In this document: in pieces, positions 2,964 to 12,054 of the stretch | Layout: each line of letters opens with the position of its first letter | How positions within the stretch are numbered: the first letter of the stretch is position 1 | UHGV virus genome: UHGV-0131805 | Reading direction: 5' to 3' (one strand) | Source of the DNA: a virus | Length of the DNA: 16,585 bases | Translations under genes and position numbers: made by a program | The notes under the pieces: generated by a model | Seen by the model: only the letters and a program-made list of their open reading frames with translations | The model's database searches: none | Told to the model about the DNA's origin: nothing

Positions 2964-4633
2964 CCCCGATCAAATTCATGATATGCCTCATCGTCATCAC
3001 GATAACCGCCCTCCATTGCCCGCGACCGCTCCGGCAGCGCCTGACAGGCTGATTCCTCCAGGATGAAGCCCTCCATGTATGAGGCCCGGTTTGCCATACA
3101 GAGCGCCACGGCAAAATCGCCATGACGGCGGGCGTTCACAGCCGTTGCGTTCTGGTCCTTCGTGCGCCCCTTGTCGATTTGCGGGACACCGTTCACCACT
3201 TTCACATGACGCAAATCATCAAGCGTGGTCTGATGGCGGGCGACGAGGATATTCTGATCCTCAAATTCGGCTTTCAGTTTTGGCATCCACTCGCCGTACC
3301 ACTTCGGCGACAGCATCACGCAGTCGATGATGTCCGGGCCAAAGGCCAGCAGCGCGGCTTCGGCCAGATACCCGCCATTACCGGTGGCGTCGAACGCCGC
3401 CCCGACCAGCGCCGGAACGCGGGTCAGGATGTACATCATCACCTGCTCCTGCTGGGCATACGGCAGGTTACGCAGCTCCACGCGAAACACCTCGCGTTTT
3501 GCCAGGGATTCGGTGATTTCCAGCAGCACAAAGCAGGACAGGTCACCGGTGCGGGCAAAGTCTTCCCCGAAGCTGAAGCGGGAACGGGGATTTAACGCCT
3601 CTGAAAGCGGTTTTAAATGTTCTTCACACCAGGTTAAAACTTCCGATTCACGCAGCCATGCGGCACGGCTGATGAAGTCGTCCGGGGCTTCAAACGTCAG
3701 AATCGGGATGTCGCGGATCATCGCCATTTCAATGAGCGCGTGGGGAATATAGGCACCGCCGGATTTTTTCGGGATACAGCCGTATTCCTCGTCGGCATCC
3801 TCACGGGTCGGGGCGTTTTTGTAGAGATCATCACGCCATTTCTGCTCGCTTTCCGGCGACCATTCGCACCCGGTGACATAACAGATACGACGGTATAATC
3901 CGTCCGCAATGGCATCATCCAGGGTAATGCGGTGGACGCTGTAATCCTTGCGCCCCTCGCGGGCTTCCTGAATGTACTGATTAAACAGATTATCGACGCC
4001 ATTATGCGTGGAAATAATGCGCACGCGCGCGCCCCACATGGTGAGCGCCATTGCCGCCTTGAGAAGTTCATCCAGCGACTCGTGGAACGCGGCTTCATCA
4101 ATCACCACATCCCCCTGAAGGCCGCGCAGGTTTGACGGACGGGAAGACAGTGCCTGAATTTTGAATCCGCTGTTCGGGAAGCGGATCATGTAGGTCAGAA
4201 TTTCTTCTTTTTTATTCCGATCCCAGAAGGTCTGCTCATACACATCAGCATCTGCCAGCTGGTTAAAGGCCCGGGAGAACAGTGCGCAGGCAGAAATATA
4301 TTCCAGCGCCATCTCCTGCTTTGACCCCACATAAAACACATTACGGCCACCACGACGCTTCGGTTTTGCGGCGGTAATGACGTTACGCCCGGCTTCCGCC
4401 CAGGTAAGCCCGGTGCGTCGGGATTTCTCCGCGATGCAGACCTGACTTTCATCCGCAAACCAGCGGGCCTGATAATCCAGAAACACCGGCATATCACCGG
4501 GCAAATCAAGGCTGTCCGGCACATCCACGCCCAGCAGGGCTTTTTCACCGGACAGATCAATTTTGCGGGGAGGTGAAAGTTTTATCAGCCCCGTATCTGG
4601 TTTAACTTTTTCTTCGCCGGTTCTTTTACTCAT
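2954..4633 (-). CDS. Terminase large subunit (Mu gp28-like)
   Basis: 559-aa ORF following the small-subunit gene; size and synteny of Mu-like TerL. No canonical Walker A was picked out by eye, so the call rests on synteny. Confidence 0.75.
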   Translation of the reverse strand: MSKRTGEEKVKPDTGLIKLSPPRKIDLSGEKALLGVDVPDSLDLPGDMPVFLDYQARWFADESQVCIAEKSRRTGLTWAEAGRNVITAAKPKRRGGRNVFYVGSKQEMALEYISACALFSRAFNQLADADVYEQTFWDRNKKEEILTYMIRFPNSGFKIQALSSRPSNLRGLQGDVVIDEAAFHESLDELLKAAMALTMWGARVRIISTHNGVDNLFNQYIQEAREGRKDYSVHRITLDDAIADGLYRRICYVTGCEWSPESEQKWRDDLYKNAPTREDADEEYGCIPKKSGGAYIPHALIEMAMIRDIPILTFEAPDDFISRAAWLRESEVLTWCEEHLKPLSEALNPRSRFSFGEDFARTGDLSCFVLLEITESLAKREVFRVELRNLPYAQQEQVMMYILTRVPALVGAAFDATGNGGYLAEAALLAFGPDIIDCVMLSPKWYGEWMPKLKAEFEDQNILVARHQTTLDDLRHVKVVNGVPQIDKGRTKDQNATAVNARRHGDFAVALCMANRASYMEGFILEESACQALPERSRAMEGGYRDDDEAYHEFDRGCW

Positions 4634-6728: not shown

Positions 6729-7229
6729 TCAGACTTTCGGCAAATCGTAACGACATAACCATTCATCCGCCGAACGGCGGGCCTCAAGACCGGGGAGTTT
6801 CACCCCCTTCGAATAAATCCAGCGGATATACTGCTTACAGGACGCGGGCATCTGCCCGGCATTGATAAGGCGCAGGAGCGTGGAGTTGCGAAAGTTAGTT
6901 TCACCGGCCCAGAAAATCCAGGAGGCCAGCGCCACCGTCTGACCACGGGTAAGCGGCACCTGAACATGACGATCGATAGCCGCAAAGGCCCATTTCATGT
7001 CCTTTTCCAGCAGCTCAAGACATTCTTCATCGGTTTTTGTCATACCCGGTTTCACATCCGGCCCGGTATGGCCGTAACAGATGGTGAGGGTGCCGGTGGG
7101 ATCAGTGTACGTGGTGTTTTCTTTCCCTTCCCAGTAGCCGGTGTAGTGCGTGGCAATGGTGAACGTCCCGGCTCCGGCCAGAACAAGGGCAATCAGCTTT
7201 TTACGCAGTGGCGCGGGGAGTTTTGGCAT
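6729..7229 (-). CDS. SAR endolysin (phage lysozyme, T4-lysozyme-like catalytic triad)
   Basis: N-terminal basic stretch plus weakly hydrophobic Gly/Ala-rich segment (RKKLIALVLAGAGTFTIA) typical of signal-anchor-release domains. Then EGKENTTYTDPTGTLTICYGHTG, giving the E-x8-D-x5-T triad of lysozyme-family endolysins. Confidence 0.8.
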   Translation of the reverse strand: MPKLPAPLRKKLIALVLAGAGTFTIATHYTGYWEGKENTTYTDPTGTLTICYGHTGPDVKPGMTKTDEECLELLEKDMKWAFAAIDRHVQVPLTRGQTVALASWIFWAGETNFRNSTLLRLINAGQMPASCKQYIRWIYSKGVKLPGLEARRSADEWLCRYDLPKV

Positions 7230-7300: not shown

Positions 7301-7723
7301 TCAGAAAAGCCGGGGCTGCGTGCGCTCCTGATGCAGGCGACGCTGGTTGCGGATAACGGAGTAAATCTGCGTCTCTGACATCTGGTAGTGGCGGCGCAGG
7401 GTTTCAATTTTTTCGCCCTGGCTCCAGCGGGAAAAAATTTCATTATTGCGCAGCTCGGTGAAAAGGGACTCACCGACCGGGAGATAATAACCACGCCCGC
7501 CCATGTACCCGGCCTGAGCGGCCGCAACCTTACGGGCAAGCATACCCGCCTGAGCAGGTTCAATCCCCTGACGGTGCAGTTCAGCACTGATTACATCAAC
7601 CAGGTCACGCAGCGTGCCGGGCCAGTTCTTTTTCAGCTCATCATCAGGAATGTCATCCAGACGGTCAATCAGCGCGTGCAGCTGTTCGCTGTCACCAAAC
7701 ATGCTCATCTGTGTTTCAGCCAT
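7301..7723 (-). CDS. Mor/C-family phage transcriptional activator
   Basis: 140-aa protein immediately downstream of the GemA-like gene and upstream of lys, with a basic C-terminal region as in Mu Mor/C. Only one Mor/C-type gene is present, so Mor versus C cannot be distinguished. Confidence 0.6.
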   Translation of the reverse strand: MAETQMSMFGDSEQLHALIDRLDDIPDDELKKNWPGTLRDLVDVISAELHRQGIEPAQAGMLARKVAAAQAGYMGGRGYYLPVGESLFTELRNNEIFSRWSQGEKIETLRRHYQMSETQIYSVIRNQRRLHQERTQPRLF

Positions 7724-7793: not shown

Positions 7794-8306
7794 TTAACGG
7801 GGGAATGATTTTTCATACAGCCTGCAAACACGCTCATAACTCATCACTGCACGCTCCGACATATCCAGGGCGGCCAGCATTTTGCGGCGGTGCCAGCGTT
7901 TGAGACGCTCCAGCACATCAGAGGCCAGCGCGGGGTGTTGCTCCAGCCACTGCCAGTTAGCCACACCTTCGCCGCCGTTCTGCGCGGCCGTCTGCGATTT
8001 CACCCAGCGGTTAAGGGCCGTTTCCCCGCCATCAGCGATAAATCCCTGCCGGTGCATCACTTTCCAGATGGCGCGAATTTTGGCGGTCACCGTACCCGGT
8101 TTTAAGGCCCGGTTAACCGGTTTCTGACGCACTTTAAAACCGCGTTTTTTGAAAACATCCAGCACGCGGGATAACTCATCCGGTGACATATCCCGGCAAC
8201 TGGTTTTGCCGGTGGCCGCCAGCAGCGCGGATGTATAGGTTTCATGGTCAAGCTGTAGATCGCGTTTTGCGACATGTATTAAGGTAATCAGGGAAGCGCG
8301 ATTCAT
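7794..8306 (-). CDS. GemA-like (Mu gp16 family) early regulatory protein
   Basis: 170 aa; N-terminal LITLIHVAKRDLQLDHETYTSALLAATGKTSCRDMSPDELSRVLDVFKKRGF resembles the GemA/DUF1018 pattern as I remember it. Lies directly upstream of the Mor/C-like gene as in Mu. GGAG 9-10 nt upstream of the ATG. Confidence 0.55.
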   Translation of the reverse strand: MNRASLITLIHVAKRDLQLDHETYTSALLAATGKTSCRDMSPDELSRVLDVFKKRGFKVRQKPVNRALKPGTVTAKIRAIWKVMHRQGFIADGGETALNRWVKSQTAAQNGGEGVANWQWLEQHPALASDVLERLKRWHRRKMLAALDMSERAVMSYERVCRLYEKSFPR

Positions 8307-8319
8307 TATCGTGGCTCCA

Positions 8320-8348
8320 TAAAAAATGGGCGGTGTTACCGCACCGCC
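8320..8348 (-). terminator. Hairpin plus U-run on the minus strand at the 3' side of the AT-rich island, immediately upstream of the GemA-like RBS; possible terminator or attenuator
   Basis: 7-bp GC-rich stem GGCGGTG / CACCGCC (8329-8335 and 8342-8348), 6-nt loop, then on the minus strand CATTTTTTAT. Confidence 0.4.
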
Positions 8349-8378: not shown

Positions 8379-8639
8379 ATGAATAAAGAGAAACAACCCT
8401 ATGATGTTGCAGCCTATGTTATTGCTTCAAAACTACTGAGCCTTCTGGTTGATAAAGGCATTGTAACCCCGTCTGAAGGAACGAATATCTGCACTTGCGC
8501 AAAAGAGCTATTACCCAGCGCATCTGCCATGCGGGCAACTTCCTCGCATGGAATGCAACTGGAGAAACTCCTTCAGGATGTTATTGATTCCTTTCCGGCA
8601 CAGGATCAAGAAGGAGATTCCGAACGTCAAACGCCTTAA
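8379..8639 (+). CDS. Hypothetical 86-aa protein; the only plausible plus-strand gene in the window
   Basis: AAAGGAA lies 5 nt before the ATG. No competing minus-strand ORF covers 8307-8510. Its 3' end overlaps the minus-strand gene 8581..8898 by 59 nt. Product not recognised. Confidence 0.4.
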   Translation: MNKEKQPYDVAAYVIASKLLSLLVDKGIVTPSEGTNICTCAKELLPSASAMRATSSHGMQLEKLLQDVIDSFPAQDQEGDSERQTP

Positions 8640-8898
8640 TCTCATGATCCCGTGTGATAATATCTGACTCATCAAGGCCAAGCCTGCGTCGAATAAATTC
8701 GTTGCGGGCTTTTTTGTTAAACAACACAATTTCATCCTCAATCATTGCGATTTCATTATTAATAACGAATTGCGTCTCCGTGACAGTTAAACCCTGTTCA
8801 ATTGCCATTTCCACTATCACCCGCATTCTCTCCAGCATTCCCGCTTTTTCCAGTTCTTCGTTAATATCTTTACACTCAAATTTGATTTCTTGTTCCAT
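8581..8898 (-). CDS. Hypothetical acidic 105-aa protein, last gene of the AT-rich island
   Basis: Start set at ATG 8898 (MEQEIKFECKD...), one nt after the TAA stop of the upstream zinc-ribbon ORF; the ORF-track start at 8913 is a GTG. E/D-rich composition. No motif recognised. Confidence 0.5.
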   Translation of the reverse strand: MEQEIKFECKDINEELEKAGMLERMRVIVEMAIEQGLTVTETQFVINNEIAMIEDEIVLFNKKARNEFIRRRLGLDESDIITRDHEIKAFDVRNLLLDPVPERNQ

Positions 8899-8899
8899 A

Positions 8900-9043
8900 T
8901 TATTCATTCTCACAATTCATACATGCAGTGTCGTCGCCCATATCGCAGAGATTACACTTGCTCTCACCACAATATGGGCACTCTTTCAGATACTCCGGAG
9001 CCTCATTTCCACAGGTGGGACATTCAACAATTTGCTCATCCAT
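8900..9043 (-). CDS. Small zinc-ribbon protein with four CxxC motifs (47 aa); absent from the ORF track because it is under 60 aa
   Basis: Hand translation of the minus strand gives MDEQIVECPTCGNEAPEYLKECPYCGESKCNLCDMGDDTACMNCENE. Motifs CPTC, CPYC, CNLC and CMNC. AAGGAG lies 7 nt upstream of the ATG; stop TAA is 1 nt before the next gene's ATG. Confidence 0.5.
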   Translation of the reverse strand: MDEQIVECPTCGNEAPEYLKECPYCGESKCNLCDMGDDTACMNCENE

Positions 9044-9058
9044 TATCTTTCTCCTTAT

Positions 9059-9229
9059 TCAGTCTTCTGCGACATTCGGCACAGTCATCAGGGCTTTCAA
9101 ATGTATCCGGCTCGCGATTATGAGCCAGATATAACCACCGCCTACATATACTGATATTATCGCCTGTTTTAAAAAATGATGCTTCTTGGCCATCAGAGGA
9201 CGCGCCCATCCAGCGGGTAGACTATTCAT
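9059..9229 (-). CDS. Small 56-aa ORF with a central hydrophobic segment; absent from the ORF track
   Basis: Hand translation gives MNSLPAGWARPLMAKKHHFLKQAIISVYVGGGYIWLIIASRIHLKALMTVPNVAED. ATG overlaps the end of the upstream gene (ATGAATAG) and is preceded by GGAGG at 9-nt spacing. Coding status uncertain. Confidence 0.35.
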   Translation of the reverse strand: MNSLPAGWARPLMAKKHHFLKQAIISVYVGGGYIWLIIASRIHLKALMTVPNVAED

Positions 9230-9554
9230 TTGCTTTATCCTCCATACTGGACAGAATCATATGTATTAATGTCGGGCGTGGAGATATACGCATTTCATTA
9301 AGCGTCTGAAGGGCAGCAACAGCTGCCTGTTTATCGGTGCCTTTGGCAATTTCCGCAAGAGAATGCACAATCCATAACGGACTTAACGCCACGACTGAAT
9401 CCAGAATCATGTCATCCATAATAATTTCTGACACATCCCGCTTGTCACATTCCTTATCCATAAAAGAAACGATTTTTTCCACATCTTCCGGTTTCATGCC
9501 TCCGGCGATAAGAATTTTGCGATACTCATAAGACGATCTTAATTCAATACTCAT
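9222..9554 (-). CDS. Hypothetical acidic protein (about 110 aa) in the AT-rich island
   Basis: ORF-track start 9596 overlaps the stop of the upstream membrane gene (ATGA), but the in-frame ATG at 9554 (MSIELRS...) has AGGAG at 6-nt spacing and is preferred. D/E-rich. No motif recognised. Confidence 0.5.
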   Translation of the reverse strand: MSIELRSSYEYRKILIAGGMKPEDVEKIVSFMDKECDKRDVSEIIMDDMILDSVVALSPLWIVHSLAEIAKGTDKQAAVAALQTLNEMRISPRPTLIHMILSSMEDKANE

Positions 9555-9592
9555 ATTCATCTCCTGTAACTCTGACAAGGACGTGATTTTTC

Positions 9593-9778
9593 TCATTTAT
9601 GTTTTCCAGTAATACGTATATATATGTCGATAAGAAGATTCATAATAAACAGGAAGAGCGACATCCTGATAAAGAACCAAATATCTGGCATCATGGACAG
9701 GTTTCCTGTAATCGCAAATATAAAACCAACCCCCAACACCGGAACGATAATTGCGAAAAATACAAGTCTCTTTATCAT
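9593..9778 (-). CDS. Small membrane protein (61 aa, two predicted TM helices), first gene of the AT-rich island
   Basis: Two hydrophobic stretches (LVFFAIIVPVLGVGFIFAI and FFIRMSLFLFIMNLLIDIYI). ATGA start/stop overlap with the upstream 183-aa gene; GGGAG 9 nt upstream. Strongly AT-rich codons compared with flanking genes. Confidence 0.5.
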   Translation of the reverse strand: MIKRLVFFAIIVPVLGVGFIFAITGNLSMMPDIWFFIRMSLFLFIMNLLIDIYIRITGKHK

Positions 9779-10326
9779 GGCGTTAACTCCCGTAATACAG
9801 CGTCCTCGGCAGTCCGGCGACGGTAATAAACAGCGTGAGCAGAATGTTCAGATATGCCAAACTTTTCGCCAATTTCCCGGAATGACAGACGGCGAGGGTA
9901 ATCGGAATCCCGTAGTGCACGTATAAGACGAACATCCTCATCAGATATACGTGTGCCGGGGCGTAACTCACCGCACTTTGTTAATCCGGCACCAATCATT
10001 CCTGCGCGGCACCTGACAGAGTCTTTATTACGTCCGAGATAATCCCCCATTTGCTGGCAGGTCATTGTCCGGGCATTTTTTCGGATAAATTTATCTTCAT
10101 CAGGTGTAAATCGCGGTCGTTTATATTTCAGCAACTCCGGGTATGTACTGCGCAATACGCCAGTCCGGTTATATACGGCCCAGACACTTCTTTTTATTCT
10201 GGCGGCAATATCCTTGACCGGGGTGGAGGAATAAAGCGCAATCAGCAGCGCGTCTTCTTCAGGTGTCCACGGGCGGACATGAGCGGGTGCACAGCCTTTT
10301 CCCCCCATGGGTTGTAATTTCATCAT
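9775..10326 (-). CDS. Hypothetical DNA-binding protein (183 aa) with two tandem W/F-TP-[ED]ED helix-turn-helix-like repeats and a C-terminal HTH-like segment
   Basis: Internal repeat visible in the translation: WTPEEDALLIALY...VWAVYNR and FTPDEDKFIRKNA...VRCR (Myb/SANT-like spacing). C-terminal LSFREIGEKFGISEHSAHAVYYRR resembles an HTH. Family not confirmed. Confidence 0.45.
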   Translation of the reverse strand: MMKLQPMGGKGCAPAHVRPWTPEEDALLIALYSSTPVKDIAARIKRSVWAVYNRTGVLRSTYPELLKYKRPRFTPDEDKFIRKNARTMTCQQMGDYLGRNKDSVRCRAGMIGAGLTKCGELRPGTRISDEDVRLIRALRDSDYPRRLSFREIGEKFGISEHSAHAVYYRRRTAEDAVLRELTP

Positions 10327-10329
10327 GCA

Positions 10330-10845
10330 TCACCCCCTGACTCGCTTTTCAGCAGCATAAAACTCGTCTGACAGTATTTCGGTCATTTTCTGTTTTGCGG
10401 GTTTTACGCCGCACTGAAGGTAAATCACATCATCAACACAGAACCATTTCACGGGGCCATACAGGATTGCCGAGAAATCAATGCCCAGCCAGAACAACAG
10501 GGCATCGGTTCTGGCATACGTGACGGGCGAATATTCACGCCACAGACTGTTCAGTTCGTCAGAGGCAGTGCGCAGGGCTTTGGGAATGCGCGATGTGCGC
10601 GGCGTGCAGCTCCAGCCATTCGCCGCTGTCGGTTTTCGCCATAAATCACGATGAAAAGGATATTTGTCATCCGTAAAACGCAGCCCCTTAAAACAAAAGC
10701 CACTGATACCGGATACAAATACCGGGCGGCACTCAACATTCAGCACGGCCTCAAGGCGTTTTGCCTCATCCTTAACTTTCTGGCAGTCCTGCTGATATTT
10801 TTGCCACGCAGCCAGCGCGGAAGGGTTTGATGTTTTAAAGAACAT
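10330..10845 (-). CDS. Hypothetical early-region protein (171 aa)
   Basis: Start ATG overlaps the upstream stop (TAATG); GGAGG 8 nt upstream. No motif recognised. Confidence 0.5.
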   Translation of the reverse strand: MFFKTSNPSALAAWQKYQQDCQKVKDEAKRLEAVLNVECRPVFVSGISGFCFKGLRFTDDKYPFHRDLWRKPTAANGWSCTPRTSRIPKALRTASDELNSLWREYSPVTYARTDALLFWLGIDFSAILYGPVKWFCVDDVIYLQCGVKPAKQKMTEILSDEFYAAEKRVRG

Positions 10846-11378
10846 TACGCCACCTCCGCAGATATCCCGGCAGGCGCTGCTGTCCGGTCAACAATCAGGT
10901 AGCGCAGAACATGTTCAGTGATATTCCAGCCGCTTAAACCGCAGATAATGACACCCAGGCGAATGTCGATATACGCCATCACAAACTGGGGCACACCTTC
11001 TTTCATGGCCTGCTCATCAACTTCAGCCACCACATAAACGGTTTCACAGGTCAGTACGCCCTGAGCAAATTCCCACGCCATCGACGGAATATCATGCCCC
11101 TCAATCCACGGCAGGGACTTTCTGAAGCTGCACCACTGAACATCATCAGCCGCACATTCCTGGCTGCATTTGCGACGAACCGGCTGCACCGGGCGGGGAC
11201 GCGGAATATCATAAAAACCGTTACATTCCGTCAGCACGCCTGCATCAACCGCATCACGCAGAAAATAAACCATGGAGGATGGCGGCATATTCATTTTTTC
11301 AGCCAGTACACCGCAGGTCAGGCGGCCATAAATACGCAGCCAGTTTTTAACCCCTTCAAGCACTTTTGCATCAATCAT
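10845..11378 (-). CDS. Hypothetical early-region protein (177 aa), possible N-terminal winged-helix
   Basis: ORF with GGGGA 9 nt upstream of the ATG, downstream of a 145-nt AT-rich gap after gam. N-terminal region (LTCGVLAEKMNMPPSSMVYFLRDAVDAGVL) is HTH-like. Family not recognised. Confidence 0.45.
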   Translation of the reverse strand: MIDAKVLEGVKNWLRIYGRLTCGVLAEKMNMPPSSMVYFLRDAVDAGVLTECNGFYDIPRPRPVQPVRRKCSQECAADDVQWCSFRKSLPWIEGHDIPSMAWEFAQGVLTCETVYVVAEVDEQAMKEGVPQFVMAYIDIRLGVIICGLSGWNITEHVLRYLIVDRTAAPAGISAEVA

Positions 11379-11523: not shown

Positions 11524-12054
11524 TTATTTATTCAGTCCGGCGTCCTGTTCAAAAGGCTCGACATAAAAACTTTCAGCGCCTTTATTCACCTTAATACCGG
11601 CAATGCCTTTCACCGCATCCGGCTCCGCCAGGACCGCTTCCTTATTCACTTCCTCTTTCGTGCGGATGAAACGCTCAAGGCCCATACGGCGCAGCATTTC
11701 AATCACACCTTCCACATCACGGCTGACGCTGCATGATGGATTTCCCAGTCGCCATGACACCGTTCCGGTGGTCAGATTAGCTGTTTTGGTTTTTCCGCCG
11801 TTCGTCAGCTCATCGCGGTTGGTTTTGCACCAGTCCTGAATCCCTTTAAAAAGCACTTTGATTTGCTTTTTAAGATTTTCAATCTGCGGCGTATAACGGG
11901 CGGTGATTTCTGCCACTTCATCATTCATTGCCGTTTCCAGGCGCAGCGCCTCTCGCTGAATATCTCCCAGGGTGCGGATATCACGGCTGACTTCTTCCCG
12001 GGTCTGCGGTGCCGCCTCGGCTGCGGCCTTTAATTTTGTAATGCGTTTAGCCAT
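11524..12054 (-). CDS. gam: Gam, host-nuclease inhibitor protein (Mu Gam / Ku-like DNA-end-binding family)
   Basis: 176 aa. Segments such as LETAMNDEVAEITARY, TNRDELTNGGKTKTANLTTGTVSWR and LERFIRTKEEVNKEA closely track Mu Gam as I recall it. AAGGA RBS. Confidence 0.8.
   Translation of the reverse strand: MAKRITKLKAAAEAAPQTREEVSRDIRTLGDIQREALRLETAMNDEVAEITARYTPQIENLKKQIKVLFKGIQDWCKTNRDELTNGGKTKTANLTTGTVSWRLGNPSCSVSRDVEGVIEMLRRMGLERFIRTKEEVNKEAVLAEPDAVKGIAGIKVNKGAESFYVEPFEQDAGLNK

Follow-up and report, generated by a model that had tools for sequence, protein, structure and literature searches.

A Mu gp13 (E14) orthologue with a predicted two-metal cysteine scaffold in the early region of a Mu-like prophage of the Escherichia coli type

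The semi-essential (SE) region of bacteriophage Mu consists of 14 largely uncharacterised open reading frames (ORFs) on a long early transcript, on which they are co-transcribed with A and B from Pe; the region can be deleted, and it specifies functions lethal to the host (PMC3325207, PMC3820752). In the annotation of Mu, gp13 appears as Mup13, "previously E14" (UniProt GP13_BPMU), and it has been present in GenBank as an ORF since the original record of the Mu left end (M64097). A literature search covering Mu gp13, Mup13, the CDMGDD motif, the Mu SE region and links to zinc or anti-defence found nothing on the gp13 protein. Here we describe a 47-residue protein encoded on the minus strand, at positions 8900 to 9043, of UHGV virus genome UHGV-0131805, a stretch of 16,585 nucleotides that we call the window. 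The window is a Mu-like transposable prophage of the E. coli type with its genes on the minus strand and, judged by sequence comparison, the ORF is an orthologue of Mu gp13/E14 and not a new gene. We propose that this protein is a two-metal scaffold that serves early in infection as a module binding a host factor. The identity of the protein and its nature as a metal scaffold are in our view nearly beyond doubt, and the proposal taken as a whole is evenly balanced between being right and being wrong.

The gene, its translation signal and the two halves of its product are located as follows.

8900-9043, minus strand: coding sequence of gp13/E14 type, a frame of 47 codons with its stop, based on the ORF list, tblastn, the match to phrog_5584 and purifying selection
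9051-9056, minus strand: Shine-Dalgarno sequence AAGGAG, separated from the gp13 ATG by a spacer of 7 nt (9050-9044)
8969-9022, minus strand: predicted N-terminal half, a zinc ribbon of rubredoxin type with CPTCG (C8, C11) and CPYCG (C22, C25) and a variable loop, based on spacing, sub-threshold Pfam and PDB matches and AlphaFold2
8912-8959, minus strand: C-terminal core K29-C30-x2-C33-D34-M-G36-D37-D38-x2-C41-x2-C44, predicted to form a second Cys4 site with the DMGDD loop, based on invariance and AlphaFold2

Translation of 8900..9043 gives MDEQIVECPTCGNEAPEYLKECPYCGESKCNLCDMGDDTACMNCENE, in which the cysteines occupy positions 8, 11, 22, 25, 30, 33, 41 and 44. The start (ATG, 9043-9041) and the stop (TAA, 8902-8900) can be read directly on the minus strand; a single base, 8899, separates this stop from the ATG of gp14 (8898-8896), and the stop of an upstream gene remnant (TGA, 9038-9036) overlaps the start of gp13: ATGGATGA. 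The first-pass annotation of this DNA had described a minus-strand protein of 47 residues with four CxxC motifs, with AAGGAG 7 nt upstream of its ATG and a stop 1 nt from the start of the next gene, and each of these particulars was reproduced exactly when the sequence was read again. When all six frames of the window are cut at their stop codons, 211 segments reach 40 codons or more; this ORF is the only one of them with four CxxC motifs, all the others having at most two. The predicted protein has a mass of 5.2 kDa and is highly acidic, with 12 D/E against 2 K/R, a net charge of -10 and a pI of about 4.05.

Comparison with Mu leaves little room for another assignment. A tblastn search of 2.3 Gb of phage DNA aligned the window protein to Mu gp13 with 85% identity over residues 7-47 (E about 2e-15), and the gp13 genes of D108, SfMu and the Yersinia Mu-like phages proved to be as close to it as that of Mu. 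By sequence similarity the protein falls into the Mu gp13/E14 family (phrog_5584, E=1.6e-25); it has the eight-cysteine spacing of this family with the KCxxCDMGDD core, and its gene occupies the corresponding slot of the early (SE) region of Mu-type phages, with gp12 on one side and gp14/gemA on the other. The identity of 85% extends over a cysteine core of 41 residues that shares all eight cysteines and the DMGDD motif with Mu; the gene is also found at the same place in the early semi-essential region, and the gap to gp14 is again 1 nt (7653/7655 in Mu). Two differences set the proteins and their surroundings apart: Mu gp13 has 13 extra N-terminal residues that the 47-residue window form lacks, and the upstream neighbour is gp12 in Mu but a gene remnant in the window, because about 1.3 kb of other genes has been inserted here between gp12 and gp13. 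The window form is a variant with a short N-terminus, located at a mosaic junction, of a family that is already known but functionally blank. The claim that the protein is unannotated holds only for this short form: PGAP left the 46/47-residue form uncalled in the four E. coli genomes that we inspected (L001, L032, L033, L036), but the 60-residue form of the Mu type carries the annotation gp13 in Mu and RefSeq and is called by PGAP, and the orthologous Mu entry is old. The practical consequence is that gene callers miss the 46/47-residue form in E. coli genomes.

The pattern of substitutions indicates that the ORF is certainly a real protein-coding gene under strong constraint. Between the window and Mu, 18.7 of the 21.2 synonymous sites in the 39-codon core have changed (pS 0.88, that is, saturated) and pN is 0.066; low dN/dS was found in all informative pairs among the other Mu-type sequences as well, with pN of 0.03-0.08. 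The identity of gp13 to its Mu counterpart (85%) also exceeds that of all other early proteins compared, from Gam to Mor (28-69%). Thirteen residues are invariant in an alignment of 118 sequences (C8, C11, G12, C22, C25, K29, C30, C33, D34, G36, D37, C41 and C44), and P23, M35 and D38 are conserved in 90% or more of them. A genuine small protein with eight conserved cysteines, as had been proposed, is thus borne out by both the alignment and the substitutions. The orthologues that were checked for loss of the frame or of the cysteines, which range from E. coli to Betaproteobacteria, have retained both. The ORF is short, lies at a mosaic junction and went uncalled by PGAP in several genomes, which are the properties expected of a chance ORF or a non-functional remnant; nevertheless, saturated synonymous sites at a pN of 0.03-0.08, cysteines and a motif that are invariant across hundreds of clusters, the strong Shine-Dalgarno sequence and the uniqueness of a four-CxxC ORF in the window refute this explanation, and we give it practically no weight.

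The family is broad and uniform in its architecture. A profile search of 5.8 billion proteins yielded 137 relatives, and an exhaustive search with a hidden Markov model (HMM) against 1.84 billion cluster representatives at 50% identity yielded 251 proteins at E<=1e-3, a minority of which are long proteins with multiple zinc ribbons that match the first half of the domain only. Of 120 retrieved sequences, 117 show the pattern CxxC-x(9-40)-CxxC-x4-CxxC-x7-CxxC; variation is confined to the first spacer (9-40 residues), the x4 and x7 spacings being fixed in all 117. The second half follows the consensus KC-x2-CDMGDD-x2-C-x2-C, with column conservation computed on 208 sequences. Acidity is also a trait of the family, with a median net charge of -8, a median pI of 4.2 and C-terminal tails that contain 375 D/E against 22 K/R.

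These regularities, combined with the structural model, suggest two sequential Cys4 sites, namely an N-terminal zinc ribbon and a knuckle-plus-helix unit, similar to a treble clef, that would present the DMGDD loop. The AlphaFold2 model built with the family alignment (pLDDT 84.5) contains a hairpin (E19-21/E28-30) whose turn holds C22/C25, and a short helix (42-46) that begins at C41/C44. Two CxxC knuckles, C8xxC11 and C22xxC25, accordingly flank the modelled beta-hairpin, as in a zinc ribbon. The metal is presumably zinc and the cysteines are presumably paired sequentially; however, the sites may instead be cross-braced or nested, and iron may take the place of zinc.

A zinc ribbon or a double zinc knuckle had been suggested from the cysteine spacing. 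The N-terminal half does fit a zinc ribbon, at scores that remain below threshold: Zn_Ribbon_1 (PF13240) gives 20.8 bits for the window protein against a gathering cut-off of 25, and it matches 30 of 118 members (best E 1.7e-05), the top per-protein score being 24.9 bits (P0035), also below the cut-off. The sub-threshold Pfam matches to generic zinc ribbons (Zn_Ribbon_1, the LapB rubredoxin-type domain, DZR) are confined to residues 7-27, that is, to the first four cysteines, and the sequence-profile search of the PDB again returned generic zinc ribbons (RPA12, L37ae and others; best E 0.0013) over the first four cysteines only. The first half of gp13, with CPxCG...CPxCG and a hairpin, therefore resembles classical zinc ribbons such as PF13240, the C-terminal ribbon of RNA polymerase I RPA12 and ribosomal L37ae/eL43 at a sub-threshold level, whereas the second half, KCxxCDMGDDxxCxxC, has no counterpart among Pfam or PDB sequences. 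Neither Pfam nor NCBIfam contains a model that scores above its cut-off for the window protein or covers the family, the only PHROG matches are phrog_5584 and phrog_6418, both annotated as unknown function, and a structural-neighbour search gave no significant match for the gp13 domain.

Because knuckles of the CxxCG/CPxCG type resemble those of rubredoxin, a rubredoxin-like iron protein or a thiol-redox module, acting in electron transfer or redox sensing, was considered. Sub-threshold matches to rubredoxin-like zinc-ribbon variants (the LapB rubredoxin-type domain in 23 of 118 members, RUBY_RBDX in 3 of 118) and to DnaJ CXXCXGXG point in the same direction. However, no match reaches its gathering score, rubredoxin itself (PF00301) is not among the listed Pfam matches of the 118 members, so that gp13 does not classify as a rubredoxin, the genomic context offers no redox partner, and such knuckles are generic to zinc ribbons. 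We hold a redox function to be very improbable. Another small protein with a superficial resemblance (CPTCG...C-x-L-x-D-x-G) is YacG, the E. coli inhibitor of DNA gyrase, which like gp13 is small and acidic at its C-terminus and which binds zinc, as gp13 presumably does. YacG has one Cys4 site with a spacing unlike that of gp13. The matches of the window protein to YacG are weak (Pfam PF03884, E=0.027, 14.6 bits against 25.5; NCBIfam NF001638, E=0.0089, 15.8 bits against 83). A gyrase inhibitor of the YacG type was rejected because the hhalign probability is 6.5% and because YacG does not figure among the 25 Pfam families that the 118 members match most frequently.

The genes that accompany gp13 differ greatly among the loci where the family is found. 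Within Mu-type prophages, gp14 and gp15 can be absent, so that gp13 abuts gemA (L034, L074), a phrog_1988 gene can be inserted after gp13 (L055 and others), and the upstream genes can differ (L035). In betaproteobacterial Mu-like elements, a gp13-type gene is found near GemA, Mor or Gam. Mu-type terminase, portal and F genes flank or adjoin it in five loci (L011, L006, L090, L096, L102). In several prophages, it lies in a lambdoid early-left operon, coupled to an Rv2179c-like 3'-5' exonuclease. Elsewhere it has SSB on one side and an SbcC-like ATPase on the other, with an SbcD-like phosphoesterase upstream (L018). In the lytic Klebsiella phage Kpn BU9, its neighbours in the replication module are an exonuclease, SSB and DNA polymerase; a 209-kb contig carries it behind the subunits of topoisomerase II, and it accompanies RdgC, DUF1173 and H-NS in a region resembling an integrative and conjugative element (ICE). 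Further neighbours include TraC/TraG, Rep3, Dam and Mom. The replication-module contexts include lytic and jumbo phages.

No obligate partner emerged: in a set of 125 proteins that flank the gene at some 33 distinct loci, no Pfam family occurs in more than three loci, and neither all-against-all clustering of the neighbours nor marker mapping over 102 loci revealed a constant partner gene. GemA and Mor recur near gp13 only because many of the loci are Mu-like. In betaproteobacterial Mu-like phages (L011, 5977-6162; L006; L090; L102), the gp13-type gene has the Mu portal gene on one side and the Mu F head gene on the other; like a moron, it is thus located within the late structural module instead of the early region.

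In multidomain proteins, the gp13 domain invariably occupies the C-terminal end, and its N-terminal partners are mutually unrelated, except that four proteins (P0124, P0139, P0144, P0232) appear by eye to have a similar N-terminal region. The sole Pfam hit among the partners is a Phage_ProQ_C_like match in P0124 (26.6 bits against a cut-off of 27), and their PHROG matches are annotated as unknown function. Being diverse and uncharacterised, the partners were discarded as clues to function. In some Mu-type E. coli prophages (for example L049, ORF 3368-4126; IMG/VR UViG_2534681761_000009), the gp13 domain is joined in frame to the protein in the gp12 position (231/252 residues). The 231-residue form corresponds to phrog_6418 (P0263, P0270, P0276), in which the C-terminal 41 residues are the gp13 domain (E=1.8e-19) but a 170-residue N-terminal domain, fused in frame, takes the place of gp12. 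This N-terminal part has no Pfam match, and the notion that the protein is a fusion with gp12 itself was abandoned after BLASTP detected no similarity to Mu gp12. A different kind of hybrid is the 55-residue P0061 of Salmonella enterica, which combines the N-terminus of a D5-like regulator (of the type encoded at 9775-10326 in the window) with the C-terminal half of gp13, which contributes only the third and fourth CxxC. It is one of the three members of the set without the full cysteine pattern and apparently is a deletion derivative.

The contexts and fusions bear on the possibility that gp13 is a subunit or adaptor of a phage-encoded complex and works in cis with the product of an adjacent gene, such as the gp12-position protein, gp14, the exonuclease or Mu F; gp13 might then be, for instance, a metal-stabilised interaction or regulatory tail and not a binder of a host factor. 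Start and stop codons that overlap or abut those of the neighbours, both here and in Mu, the natural fusion with the gp12-position protein (L049; P0263, P0270), the constant C-terminal placement of the domain and its direct coupling to the Rv2179c-like exonuclease in lambdoid prophages are all compatible with such a role. However, no neighbour family is conserved across the gp13 family, and gp13 persists where gp12, gp14 or gp15 is replaced or absent (L034, L035, L074). Moreover, if gp13 co-evolved with phage partners that diverge rapidly, its identity of 85%, compared to 44-54% for its neighbours, would be difficult to explain. We consider a phage-encoded complex unlikely, and the complex with neighbouring island proteins for which a structure prediction had been suggested is disfavoured for the same reason, namely the lack of a neighbour conserved across the family. 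The location of the gene in an early region, in tight coupling to its neighbours, did hold, the region being of the Mu-type semi-essential kind. The distribution of the family shows that gp13 is a stand-alone mobile module that has no fixed neighbour and can be reused as a C-terminal domain.

Such behaviour leads us back to the reading that gp13 binds a host factor. Conservation above that of every neighbouring phage protein, together with the spread over unrelated elements of Gamma- and Betaproteobacteria, suggests that the target is invariant and probably encoded by the host, and the frequent presence nearby of genes for nucleases, recombination and replication directs attention to DNA metabolism or to DNA-directed defence. 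A DNA-binding regulator is unlikely because gp13 is so strongly acidic, and we infer that the protein does not bind nucleic acids. Under the model that we propose, gp13 is transcribed in the long early operon of the Pe type and translated through coupling to its neighbours, and its two Cys4 metal sites would form a scaffold displaying the invariant acidic loop D34-M-G-D-D38 and the acidic tail. The protein would act alone, as a stoichiometric protein-binding module that serves as an inhibitor or an adaptor, with the DMGDD face docking onto a target of high conservation among Proteobacteria. The most plausible target would be a host factor of DNA metabolism or of defence against phages that gp13 encounters early in infection. 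In the fusion proteins, the module would tether the other domains to the same target. This mechanism, with its host target, is a tentative proposal that we think has a somewhat smaller chance of being correct than of being wrong. The suggestion of the first-pass annotation that such small zinc-binding proteins regulate or inhibit host proteins is consistent with this model, in which the inhibitory role is inferred from distribution and conservation.

The same acidity would also suit a nucleic-acid mimic, an anti-restriction decoy that blocks a nuclease or a DNA-binding defence protein (of the RecBCD/SbcCD type, or a restriction enzyme) and would represent a specific sub-case of host-factor inhibition. 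A net charge of -10 in 47 residues, the family median of -8 with acidic tails, the early timing of the gene, its recurrence near Gam, exonucleases, SbcCD-like genes and SSB, and its presence in ICE or conjugative contexts are in line with mimicry. Known DNA mimics, however, are much larger than 47 residues; Ocr and ArdA, both dimeric, have more than 100 residues. In addition, the invariance of gp13 is focused in one short loop and is not spread as a distributed charge pattern, and no similarity to known anti-restriction families was found, Lar matching 5 of 118 members below threshold (best E 0.059). Mimicry of DNA thus appears distinctly unlikely. Searches with the PADLOC-DB defence models gave no match for gp13 or for its neighbours in the SE region.

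The regulatory role that had been put forward could alternatively be exerted on RNA polymerase, with gp13 either assisting the switch from early to middle transcription or binding the secondary channel in the manner of TraR/DksA with an acidic tip. The gene is indeed located just upstream of gemA and mor in Mu-like phages, and its invariant acidic loop, carried by a scaffold that zinc would stabilise, may be seen as analogous to the acidic tip of DksA and TraR, which is inserted via the secondary channel of RNA polymerase. Nonetheless, gp13 matches neither zf-dskA_traR nor Ogr/Delta nor any helix-turn-helix family; the TraR/DksA C4 zinc finger and Ogr/Delta are absent both from the nine Pfam matches of the window protein (E<=0.1) and from the 25 top families of the 118 members. 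It also has few basic residues, which makes DNA binding unlikely, the structural model predicts a single short helix and no coiled coil, and many of the non-Mu contexts lie far from regulators. We regard action on RNA polymerase as improbable.

If the binding of a host factor is pushed further, the family would represent a widespread and hitherto unrecognised set of counter-defence or host-takeover effectors, in which a two-zinc scaffold of about 45 residues uses the DMGDD loop to plug into one highly conserved proteobacterial enzyme or immune sensor. This is a speculative extension that we deem rather unlikely. Were it true, Mu-like, lambdoid, lytic and jumbo phages as well as ICEs would deploy the same module, either alone or as a tail that targets an effector, and the top conservation of gp13 among the Mu early proteins compared (gam to mor) would reflect an invariant host target. 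As the most conserved of the early proteins compared in a classic model phage, and as a member of a compact domain family that is widely spread, has no fixed partner and is reused as a C-terminal module, gp13 is a cheap and well-defined candidate for a screen for inhibitors of host factors or defence. What the present analysis adds is the domain signature, the breadth of the distribution, the missing curated model and structure, and the free-standing, mobile behaviour of the domain. Current concepts are unchanged unless the function of gp13 is found, and specialists will not be surprised by a small ORF of the zinc-ribbon type in the SE region of Mu.

The surrounding genes place gp13 within a recognisable Mu early region, in the order gp11-gp12-...-gp13-gp14-gp15 (opposite strand)-GemA-Mor that is kept from Mu. 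Percentages in the list give identity to the Mu protein.

11524-12054, minus strand: Gam (57%)
10845-11378, minus strand: protein with the Mu Gp11 C-terminal domain, gp11 (69%)
10330-10845, minus strand: gp12 homologue (54%)
9775-10326: D5-like regulator, inserted between gp12 and gp13
9593-9778: hydrophobic protein of 61 residues, inserted between gp12 and gp13
9222-9596: phrog_1988 protein, inserted between gp12 and gp13
9036-9229, minus strand: frameshifted and truncated phrog_2358 gene remnant, inserted between gp12 and gp13, from its PHROG match
8581-8898, minus strand: gp14 (E15) homologue of 105 residues, translationally coupled downstream of gp13 (phrog_6075, E=1.1e-29; 44%)
8379-8639, plus strand: gp15 homologue (phrog_8747, E=2.7e-18; 44%)
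7794-8306, minus strand: GemA (46%)
7301-7723, minus strand: Mor (28%)
6729-7229, minus strand: lysozyme

A mosaic junction at about 9039-9060 coincides with the ribosome-binding site and start codon of gp13. To the right of this junction (9039-9250), the window is 98% identical to prophages of the CI5 type; to the left (8820-9060), it is 88% identical to another prophage subtype (2012EL-2448), and no complete E. coli genome was found to have both sides contiguous over 8800-9250. Prophages with about 94% identity are present in 229 of 5426 complete E. coli genomes, whereas gp13 of the window type was found in about 22 genomes and that of the Mu type in 27. The gp13-gp14-gp15 cassette is optional within this prophage lineage, and in E. 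coli CI5 its place is taken by a protein of 98 residues.

The phrog_2358 remnant comprises two overlapping ORFs of 56 (9059-9229) and 57 residues (9036-9209), which match profile positions 4-31 and 18-66 of 146; the pair is the remnant of one frameshifted gene that has been truncated at the C-terminal end. A T6A4 run (9175-9166) lies within the region where the frames overlap. In E. coli CI5 the copy is 98% identical, and PGAP labels it as a pseudogene with a frameshift; about 200 complete E. coli genomes have copies of the stretch with 90-99% identity.

On the other side of gp13, gp14 (minus strand) and gp15 (plus strand) are convergent, with 3' ends that overlap by 59 nt (8581-8639); the arrangement in Mu is the same (7896-7957). 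The conservation of this overlap suggests either an antisense interaction of the two genes or a constraint on the cassette. In the interval from the gp13-gp14 unit to gemA, close to the start of gp15 but outside the gene, the coding (minus) strand contains a terminator-like hairpin, GGCGGTG-CGGTAA-CACCGCC followed by a T-run (8329-8348). This predicted hairpin could partition the early transcript or insulate gemA/mor. A related prophage has a copy of IS1A between gemA and gp15 (L001, 1822-2519; E. coli 2012EL-2448), which suggests that the gp15-gemA intergenic region tolerates insertions.

The exact 47-residue protein of the window was seen on 35 public contigs. The representative of its cluster at 90% identity is an unrelated protein of 110 residues, the upstream neighbour of the gene in another prophage subtype; this artefact of the clustering can lead look-ups of very short proteins astray.

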